Shown here: positions 51,182 through 51,319 of the stretch, in pieces | Layout: every line of letters starts with the position of its first letter | Numbering within the stretch: the stretch's first letter is position 1 | Source: a virus | Taxonomy: Duplodnaviria > Caudoviricetes | DNA: 64,000 bases | Strand: one strand, 5' to 3' | Virus record (IMG/VR): IMGVR_UViG_3300011008_000008 | Notes under the pieces: model-generated | The model's database searches: none | Told to the model about the DNA's origin: nothing | The model's input: the letters and a program-made list of their open reading frames with translations, nothing else | Position numbers and translations under genes: made by a program

Positions 51182-51319
51182 TGGTGTGCCAGGCGGGGAT
51201 CGAACCCGCGACGCCCGGATTAATTGTGGAATGTCCAAGAATCGAACTTGGCAACACGTCTGTCGAGCCTCCTTACTCACATTCCAAGTCCGGTGCTCTA
51301 CCAACTGAGCTACTGGTAC
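51182..51319 (-). tRNA. tRNA-Lys(TTT) interrupted by a 62-nt insertion (51224-51285)
   Basis: Removing the insertion gives CCGGA-CTTTTAA-TCCGG with normal D and T arms and ACCA. Confidence 0.85.

Follow-up and report, generated by a model that had tools for sequence, protein, structure and literature searches.

A tRNA-Lys(UUU) gene whose anticodon is interrupted by a tRNA-shaped insert of 62 nucleotides (nt) was identified on the minus strand (51182-51319) of a 64-kb stretch of phage DNA, hereafter the window. The gene lies in three pieces, of 34 nt, the 62-nt insert and 42 nt, and in the favoured register the insert stands between U34 and U35. We propose that the insert may be an intron which is excised and whose flanks are resealed into tRNA-Lys; we hold the case for this proposal to be evenly balanced, both its enzymatic steps and its functional product being inferred from sequence. 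The window comes from a 153-kb metagenome contig (ENA ERZ3810914 NODE_12, ~17x coverage) of a gut or rumen phage. The phage is a large one, with integrase, DnaB, primase, Pol III alpha, ribonucleotide reductase and many methyltransferases, and the minus strand of the window carries about 15 tRNA genes from 41.7 to 52.4 kb.

The interrupted tRNA-Lys gene

ARAGORN in default mode made no call at 51182-51319, while the Rfam tRNA model (RF00005) matched the outer gene with 52 bits (gathering score 29) over 135 nt (51185-51319), covering model positions 1-71. When the 62 nt are taken out, ARAGORN reads the joined exons as a normal 76-nt tRNA-Lys(ttt) with a clean cloverleaf and a 7-nt anticodon loop, the exon junction being ...CCGGACUU/UUAAUCCGG.... 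The outer gene looks functional, because removal of the insert restores the loop CUUUUAA, AAA makes up 3.3% of the codons in 21 large open reading frames, and a promoter match lies upstream of the co-oriented tRNA run Gln, Ser, Ser, Lys (interrupted) and Val (Table 1). No second tRNA-Lys gene was found by tRNA scanning of the 64-kb window.

Two registers yield a 7-nt anticodon loop: CUU/UUAA, corresponding to tRNA-Lys(UUU), and, one base to the right, CUUG/UAA, corresponding to tRNA-Thr(UGU), which is the one reported by ARAGORN in intron mode. The first-pass annotation, made from the letters of the window, had assigned the insert to U34/U35 of tRNA-Lys, and this assignment, although not unique by sequence alone, is the favoured one. 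The Lys register is preferred because in all ten relatives that were aligned the tRNA-Lys(UUU) is uninterrupted and its acceptor stem is the same, because the window already has a tRNA-Thr(UGU) and no other tRNA-Lys, and because only in this register does the insert begin at G1 and end with a 4-nt tail. The relatives come from 33 related loci gathered via the neighbouring gene for a protein of 736 amino acids (aa). Every related locus containing the region has a tRNA-Lys, and in nearly all of them an uninterrupted tRNA-Lys(UUU) lies directly upstream of the 736-aa gene (downstream in L008). The ten aligned relatives, nine of which have the uninterrupted gene directly upstream of this neighbour, share the same tRNA body, the acceptor stem GU(G/A)CCAG/CUGGCAC and the loop CUUUUAA.

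Structure of the insert

The minimum-energy fold of the insert is the same alone and inside the precursor. From insert base 1 onwards it forms an end stem of 7 base pairs (bp), GGAAUGU/ACAUUCC (51279-51285 / 51228-51234), which encloses two inner hairpins, GAGU/GCUC (its loop containing GG) and GACA/UGUU, and a T arm with a 5-bp stem, CCAAG-UUCGAUU-CUUGG (51235-51251), that directly abuts the 3' strand of the end stem. After this strand comes the tail ACAA (4 nt; 51224-51227), and the 3' end of the insert reads ...CCACAA. Folding thus reproduces the architecture that had been described by eye (a 7-bp stem starting at G1, two hairpins, the T arm and ACAA). The label of mini-cloverleaf attached to it is borne out by the fold and the motifs, but not by Rfam, which gave no match for the insert even at E <= 10.

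The fold energy alone is modestly unusual (z = -1.9). When the insert was shuffled 2,000,000 times, a 7-bp stem at the fixed end positions arose in 2461 cases, and in only 8 was it joined by the adjacent hairpin with a 5-bp stem and a 7-nt loop; what is rare is the architecture at fixed positions and not the energy of the fold. The minimum-energy fold places the two junctions together in a single internal loop of 3 x 8 nt, which separates the stem of the insert from the anticodon stem; inspection of this fold, made without a dedicated scanner for the motif, showed no bulge-helix-bulge.

Identity of the insert in other samples

Logan contigs from three other runs, belonging to three studies (X2, X4 and X5), were compared with the locus. 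All three span the interrupted tRNA-Lys without gaps, which disposes of the two doubts raised at the outset: the gene is neither an assembly chimera nor the product of a private, one-off insertion, since independent assemblies have the insert in the same place. These contigs show 4, 9 and 10 differences over the gene stretch that each one covers, all of them outside 51224-51283. In this interval, which comprises 60 of the 62 insert bases, there were no differences, and any would have shown because only these contigs give depth there. Differences visible in the exons are located at 51213 and 51215 in the 3' exon, the latter being a G43-to-U change. The remaining ones are not directly visible because host tRNA depth masks the 5' exon and the first two insert bases, and must lie in these parts. 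For 9-10 differences placed at random over 134 positions, the probability that none falls within the 60 is ~0.003-0.005. Upstream of the gene, X2 and X4 have 152 other letters in place of the 79-nt spacer, and the region past this spacer, with tRNA-Ser(UGA), is ~85-90% identical. This pattern suggests that the insert is either strongly constrained or recently spread.

A joint in an X4 contig that skips 51213-51293 was not counted as an intron-less allele; it has 20 matching letters on one side and 80% likeness, and probably represents another tRNA. Comparison of the locus with the phage GenBank collection (blastn) gave no match, and exact scans found neither an insert word in IMG/VR nor a 29-nt insert word in the genomes of GTDB. 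As regards the flanking genes, the 177-aa protein belongs to a large family that is found in other contexts, while a homologue search returned no close homologue of the 196-aa protein.

Inserts with the same boundaries in other phages

Inserts in tRNA-Lys(UUU) were searched for with two pattern scans of IMG/VR followed by a structural filter, which removed most pattern matches as chance occurrences. Eleven loci (8 distinct sequences) were retained, with inserts of 46-74 nt at U34/U35, and all eleven inserts have a 7/7-bp end stem and an NCCA tail. They are mutually unrelated in sequence; the smallest is an acceptor/T minihelix of 46 nt, and at the other extreme stands a complete tRNA-Asn(GUU). 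These features have to be read against the patterns used: both fixed the 3' junction in tRNA-Lys (TTAA after the tail), pattern 1 fixed CCA, and pattern 2 fixed G at +1 and allowed C[AC]A; the finds of pattern 1 and of ARAGORN left G1 free, and G1 was still present. Three loci (L180:2586-2656, minus strand; L248:5387-5457, plus strand; L267:6892-6962, minus strand) hold, according to ARAGORN, a complete 74-nt tRNA-Asn(GUU) with encoded CCA between U34 and U35 of tRNA-Lys(UUU), scoring 49-57 bits with Rfam, and are true nested tRNA genes.

Two contigs of the same phage group as the window (L023 and L024) have an 83-nt insert at 34/35 of tRNA-Ile(UAU), beginning with the G of the 7-bp stem GACGCUG/CAGCGUC and ending in ACCA. 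The related inserts exceeded the threshold of the Rfam tRNA model, with 57 bits in L180, 49 in L248, 39.5 in L218, 35.5 in L024, 34.6 in L035 and 29.4 in L023. The rule shared by these inserts is that they start at the G1 of a 7-bp stem, end at the tail and occupy the bond 34/35; the insert in the window conforms to it except for CCA. Within the phage group of the window the insert is sporadic, because five whole relatives (G001-G005) were found to be without any long-span tRNA.

Most other calls made by ARAGORN in intron mode in the relatives were set aside as two adjacent tRNAs joined together, long variable arms, or chimeras of Y-RNA-like and tRNA-like sequence. A few further RNAs in these records are of interest in their own right. 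The record L035, which has a 58-nt insert in tRNA-Lys, also contains a 116-nt element (L035:5350-5465, plus strand; 32.4 bits with the tRNA model) that may be a second interrupted or expanded tRNA, although its anticodon stem did not resolve cleanly. A 94-nt tRNA called as Pro(AGG) by ARAGORN (51.5 bits), which is over-long for class I, is present in three records (L001:14649-14742, L005:14651-14744 and L011:15109-15202). ROOL RNAs (298-341 bits) occur in or beside tRNA clusters in four records (L008:15721-16318, L053:1961-2563, L218:3240-3847 and L229:10510-11086), three of which also have a tRNA-shaped insert in tRNA-Lys.

Free-standing relatives and origin of the insert

The ends of the insert recur in an element of the same window. 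Between tRNA-Arg(UCU) and tRNA-Glu(UUC), 4.6 kb from the insert, lies a free-standing tRNA-like gene (Table 1) with the 5' end GGAATGTG and the 3' end ACATTCCACAA of the nested 62-mer; each of these words occurs exactly twice in the window. Its interior is longer and unlike that of the 62-mer, with a T arm AGGG-UUCAAAU-CCCU, four internal hairpins (one of them GCAA-capped) and no anticodon loop, and it had no match in Rfam at E <= 1. A generic script for acceptor/T-arm structures, run on the window, returned just two elements that are not tRNAs, namely this gene and the nested 62-mer.

A second free-standing form, of 63 nt and nearly invariant, was found in 11 IMG/VR loci of ~100-kb phages (L292, L286, L289, L303, L317, L325, L328, L329, L331, L337 and L345) by a further pattern scan, most of whose hits were chance matches removed by structural filtering. 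It consists of GGAAUGU, a hairpin, a short hairpin, the T arm GUGGG-UUCGAUU-CCCAC, ACAUUCC and ACAA. In L292 its dot-bracket topology equals that of the insert, and the T stems of the two differ by four double changes that keep the pairs. This element is situated 16 nt upstream of a DNA primase gene, outside tRNA clusters, and is preceded by a strong hairpin; it could be a processing signal or an element of the 5' untranslated region. No description of it was found in the literature.

Taken together, the nested 62-mer is likely to be a copy of a normally free-standing family of mini-tRNA-like elements with GGAAUGU/ACAUUCC-ACAA, and ACAA, to judge from these relatives, is a trait of the family and not a decayed CCA. 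The stem may descend from a tRNA of Bacteroidota type, because a Sphingobacteriales metagenome-assembled genome (L354) has a real tRNA-Val(GAC) with the acceptor stem of the mini-tRNA followed by ACAA; the genome scan, whose gap of 40-70 excludes elements of 62-63 nt, returned besides this tRNA only two chance matches. The insert itself might have arisen through RNA repair, if a mini-tRNA-like RNA, with a 5'-phosphate on G1 and a 3'-OH on ACAA or CCA, had been ligated by a phage ligase into a tRNA-Lys cut by an anticodon nuclease at 34/35 and the product had then been copied into DNA. Such an origin, which we hold to be rather improbable, would account for boundaries that coincide with mature tRNA ends, for unrelated tRNA-like RNAs, a complete tRNA-Asn among them, at one bond and for the free-standing relatives of the 62-mer.

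Two observations on the sequences of this family and its surroundings are added here. In the first hairpin of the insert, the loop includes AAGGAGG (51268-51274, minus strand), which matches the Shine-Dalgarno word perfectly and which we read as a D-loop mimic bearing GG; the 63-nt relatives have AAAAGGAAAG at the same position, so that the purine-rich loop is conserved. Elsewhere in the window, the 5' half of a tRNA-Val(GAC) (10705-10748, minus strand; GCGGGGU...UUGACAU...) adjoins the integrase gene, with GGTCACA repeats present. A link between this fragment and the mini-tRNA family was considered and dropped, as the fragment starts with GCGGGGT and not with GGAATGT.

Proposed splicing route and candidate enzymes

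The only excision that would restore tRNA-Lys combines a cut at the 5' end of the mini-tRNA with a cut exactly four bases past its stem. In the route that we propose, the gene would be transcribed within the Gln-Ser-Ser-Lys-Val tRNA run and the insert would fold as an acceptor/T-arm minihelix with an elbow, while the exon halves would stay paired via the acceptor and anticodon stems. Host RNase P would cut at U34/G1, leaving a 3'-OH on the 5' exon, and a tRNA 3'-end endonuclease would cut four bases past the stem, after ACAA, leaving a 5'-phosphate on U35; this second cutter could be of the RNase Z/BN type, acting as a ruler, or RNase E/G acting in an A/U-rich single strand. The nick in the anticodon loop would be sealed by the phage ATP-dependent RNA ligase, with the kinase-HD enzyme on hand if the ends require healing. 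Sealing without healing would be possible because cuts by RNase P and by enzymes of the RNase Z/BN or E/G type leave 3'-OH and 5'-phosphate ends.

Bacterial RNase P accepts acceptor/T minihelices, and the recognition by this enzyme that was suggested in the first-pass annotation agrees with the minimal features present in the insert, to which other tRNA end-processing enzymes also respond, namely G1, U at -1, a 7+5-bp coaxial acceptor/T stack and a canonical T loop. U at -1, G at +1 and the 12-bp stack would together form a textbook RNase P site. For cutting right after CCA there is precedent in RNase Z of Thermotoga and RNase BN of Escherichia coli. No paper was found in the literature that shows how such inserts are removed.

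The genes for the kinase-HD protein, the ligase and an RlaP-family protein are co-oriented and located 19-21 kb from tRNA-Lys (Table 1). The ligase matched PF09414 (RNA_ligase) with 36.4 bits (cut-off 27), the PHA02142 OB domain with 23.9 bits, below its cut-off of 27, and TIGR02306 (RNA_lig_DRB0094) with 49 bits, far below the cut-off of 151; phmmer found no solved homologue in PDB. It is predicted to be of the DraRnl (Rnl5-like) type and not of the Rnl1 type. The kinase-HD protein matched AAA_33 with 74.7 bits and an HD domain weakly, together with the NCBIfam models for the kinase region of bacterial Pnkp and for HDIG, and its closest solved structures are those of the Clostridium thermocellum Pnkp kinase domain (4GP7/4JST, E ~1e-10). 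The RlaP-family protein adjoins the ligase, and it is from this position that a role in the present context may be presumed.

The occurrence of the ligase was scored in whole records at E <= 0.001. PF09414 was found in 8 of 10 insert-bearing records, and a ligase in all five insert-bearing records that are complete (PF09414 in four, one of them below the Pfam cut-off, and the T4 Rnl1-type PF09511 in G007); RtcB was found in none of the five insert-bearing records searched. Among unrelated large viral records, one in four had a ligase.

Table 1. Position and supporting evidence of the interrupted gene, its free-standing relatives, the promoter match and the candidate repair enzymes (window coordinates, unless a locus is named).
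Feature	Position	Strand	Evidence
5' exon of tRNA-Lys(UUU), nt 1-34: acceptor 5' strand, D arm, anticodon stem 5' strand, C32 U33 U34	51286..51319	-	Rfam, relatives' alignment, ARAGORN
tRNA-shaped 62-nt insert, candidate intron	51224..51285	-	minimum-energy folds, shuffle test, recurrence in other runs
3' exon, nt 35-76: U35 U36 A37 A38, anticodon stem 3' strand, variable loop, T arm, acceptor 3' strand, encoded ACCA	51182..51223	-	Rfam, relatives' alignment, ARAGORN
Free-standing 105-nt tRNA-like gene between tRNA-Arg(UCU) and tRNA-Glu(UUC)	46504..46608	-	sequence, fold
63-nt mini-tRNA, example	L292:4788-4850	+	Rfam tRNA 29.4 bits
Sigma-70-type promoter consensus TTGACA-17-TATAAT, 12/12	52756..52784	-	consensus match only
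Polynucleotide-kinase-like P-loop domain and HD phosphohydrolase domain, 324 aa, candidate end-healing enzyme	29583..30557	-	Pfam, NCBIfam, solved structures
ATP-dependent RNA ligase, 452 aa, N-terminal OB fold and nucleotidyltransferase domain, candidate sealing enzyme	30805..32163	-	Pfam, NCBIfam
RlaP-family pol-beta-type nucleotidyltransferase ("RNA repair pathway"), 379 aa, adjoining the ligase	32737..33876	-	PF10127 52.3 bits

Weighing the proposal and its alternatives

Several observations weigh against splicing. Among the sequencing runs listed as containing the stretch there was none of RNA, a result that carries no information on expression. The 3' cut is the weakest step, especially with an ACAA tail, where CCA is present in all 12 other inserts collected, and no bacterial enzyme is known to us with an established ability to cleave behind a CAA tail while keeping the downstream fragment whole. 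An RNase Z that cuts after the discriminator of CCA-less precursors would leave CAA on the 3' exon and so give an incorrect loop; the host probably has an activity of this kind, because 6 of the 15 tRNA genes of the window have no encoded CCA. At the 5' junction, U34 is able to pair with A73 of the insert in the predicted fold, which could shift the RNase P cut by one base. The insert, moreover, fails the Rfam tRNA model at the threshold given above. Its invariance beside diverging exons is explained as readily by recent lateral spread as by function, and the acceptor stem of the outer gene has a single mismatch, A3.C70, where the relatives have G3-C70, which could be early decay. As for sealing, characterised ligases of the DraRnl type act on duplex nicks and not on loops. 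A ligase was also found in all four complete relatives that are free of introns. The idea that the phage polynucleotide kinase and RNA ligase form the sealing set thus holds in so far as both are encoded; since intron-free relatives have the ligase just as often, its presence is a permissive condition, in a group of phages rich in ligases, and not a marker of the insert.

Part of this evidence can be turned into a different explanation, in which tRNA-Lys was killed by the insertion and nothing is spliced, the locus expressing instead a 62-nt mini-tRNA-like RNA with a role of its own, released by RNase P, with the halves of the tRNA as by-products or processing scaffolds. The recurrence of stem and tail in elements that stand alone and cannot be introns (46504-46608 and the 63-nt element in 11 loci), a tail that is ACAA and not CCA, the outer A3.C70 mismatch and an insert better conserved than its exons are all consistent with it, and the nested tRNA-Asn of L180, L248 and L267 indicates that an inner RNA can be a useful product. 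However, the insert stands exactly where its removal restores a perfect anticodon loop, the exons retain all other features of a tRNA (the Rfam score is 52 bits with the insert in place, and the cloverleaf is clean once it is removed), and 12 independent inserts share the G1-to-tail rule at one bond, which a mere site of expression would not require. In addition, no second tRNA-Lys is present in the window, whereas every relative containing the region has one, and insert-bearing alleles have been kept in diverged relatives. On balance we judge the loss of tRNA-Lys to be unlikely, though a serious contender.

A role in counter-defence has also to be considered; this is the splicing model in a special form, to which a purpose is added. 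The precursor or the released mini-tRNA would resist or distract a host anticodon nuclease directed against tRNA-Lys(UUU), and the repair enzymes would yield a usable tRNA only during infection. PrrC cuts at 33/34, while RloC, zymocin and enzymes of the colicin E5 type cut at 34/35, and the link to PrrC drawn in the first-pass annotation comes down to an analogy, the insert being at 34/35. The site does lie inside the anticodon of a tRNA species targeted by anticodon nucleases, the phage has a large RNA repair set together with PTH2, PARP and a weak Macro-domain match, and the inserts favour U34 tRNAs, Lys(UUU) and Ile(UAU), in a sample biased by the search patterns. Nevertheless, neither a nuclease gene nor a host was identified, the mature tRNA would be no less open to cleavage than other tRNAs, most relatives do without the insert, and sequence cannot tell such a purpose from the neutral persistence of a mobile insert; we consider this role improbable.

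A self-splicing or self-cleaving RNA, that is, a very small ribozyme intron, would have a parallel in the group I introns that occur in anticodon loops of bacterial and phage tRNAs, and yet it appears very improbable. At 62 nt the insert is far below any group I or II core, and its exclusion from these classes, already made on grounds of size, is confirmed by Rfam: no match to group I or II introns or to small self-cleaving ribozymes (hammerhead, twister, pistol, hatchet, HDV-like) was obtained with the insert at E <= 10 or with the region 40000-54000 at E <= 1, where tRNAs were the only family matched. The members of the insert family also have no common sequence beyond their tRNA-like shape. 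An assembly chimera or sequencing artefact, conceivable for a locus whose source is one metagenome contig at ~17x, deserves practically no credence: it is refuted by the gapless contigs of the three other studies, and the boundaries of the insert coincide with RNA structure in a design that recurs in unrelated contigs.

Other features of the window

Next to the interrupted gene, the 736-aa protein (47448-49658, minus strand) had no match in Pfam and reached 366 bits, against a cut-off of 600, with NCBIfam NF041916 (MXAN_6230/SCO0854 RING-domain family). Just downstream of its gene there is a weak match to the Y-RNA-like YrlA (47206-47297, minus strand; 33.8 bits against a gathering score of 69), and in the relatives tRNA-framed RNAs with UCCUUCU motifs are found around the gene. 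Within the tRNA cluster, a 90-nt tRNA-Ile(UAU)-like gene (45214-45303, minus strand; 38.5 bits) has ~20 extra bases past the anticodon arm and no encoded CCA. The window further encodes a metallophosphoesterase. On the minus strand at 58968-62450, the peptidyl-tRNA hydrolase PTH2 is found close to a PARP catalytic domain that is accompanied by WGR and to a weak Macro-domain match (20.7 bits, below the Pfam cut-off); for a phage, an ADP-ribosylation set next to a tRNA-related hydrolase is unusual.

Comparison with known systems

To our knowledge, bacteria and phages are held to have only self-splicing tRNA introns, and protein-dependent tRNA splicing is held to be archaeal and eukaryotic. Inserts with tRNA-end boundaries suggest a third route, in which universal tRNA-trimming enzymes would be combined with a phage RNA ligase, and this would bear on the purpose of phage RNA ligases beyond the mending of anticodon-nuclease damage. 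With the ACAA tail, any 3' cut must measure distance instead of reading CCA, and the link to free-standing mini-tRNA genes points to the insert as a module with an independent life. If the insert did originate by RNA repair, splicing would be the same path in reverse (RNase P, 3'-end nuclease, ligase), and the bacterial world would gain its first protein-only pathway of tRNA splicing. As a bench model, a 138-nt transcript with two or three purified enzymes would suffice.

Like group I tRNA introns, the insert interrupts the anticodon loop, is patchy among relatives and may be mobile; those introns, however, are self-splicing ribozymes of at least 200 nt with a P1-P9 core, whereas the insert has 62 nt, no such core and no model match. 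As in the tRNA introns of archaea and eukaryotes, which depend on EndA/TSEN with RtcB or Trl1, proteins would excise and ligate while the tRNA body holds the exon halves. The differences are that no bulge-helix-bulge was seen by inspection, that the site is 34/35 and not 37/38, and that the expected ends are 3'-OH/5'-phosphate and not 2',3'-cyclic phosphate/5'-OH, in line with RtcB being found in none of the five insert-bearing records searched. MALAT1/mascRNA and mitochondrial tRNA punctuation likewise involve an embedded tRNA-shaped module released by tRNA end-processing nucleases, as is proposed here, but their flanks are never rejoined, while rejoining would be needed for the function of tRNA-Lys. 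The repair of PrrC-cleaved tRNA-Lys by T4 Pnk/Rnl1 resembles the proposed route in that phage healing and sealing enzymes act at a break in the anticodon loop of tRNA-Lys(UUU); there, the damage is at 33/34 with cyclic-phosphate/5'-OH ends and nothing is removed, and the ligase encoded here is predicted to be of the DraRnl (Rnl5-like) type.

The closest precedent is found in the Lak megaphages. Devoto et al. (2019, Nat Microbiol, PMC6784885, Fig. 4 and Table S6) reported short "enigmatic" introns in the tRNAs of these phages and noted that one such intron "itself may encode a tRNA". Gene predictors called the interrupted genes tRNA-Thr(TGT) with the true junction one base off, the intron was identical across cohorts and the mechanism was not known (PMC6784885). 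The class is therefore not new, contrary to what the first-pass annotation had supposed, and the present case has in common with it a short insert in the anticodon loop of a phage tRNA, a tRNA-like fold, the Thr(TGT) miscall and the invariance across samples. It differs in being carried by a 153-kb phage and not a 540-kb Lak phage, and in that the insert has 62 nt, fails the tRNA model, ends in ACAA instead of CCA and shares its acceptor stem with free-standing relatives. The Lak paper (PMC6784885) contains no boundary rule, enzyme proposal or link to a ligase; what is added here are the non-CCA tail, the free-standing relatives, the cross-sample invariance and a boundary rule that extends over independent inserts.

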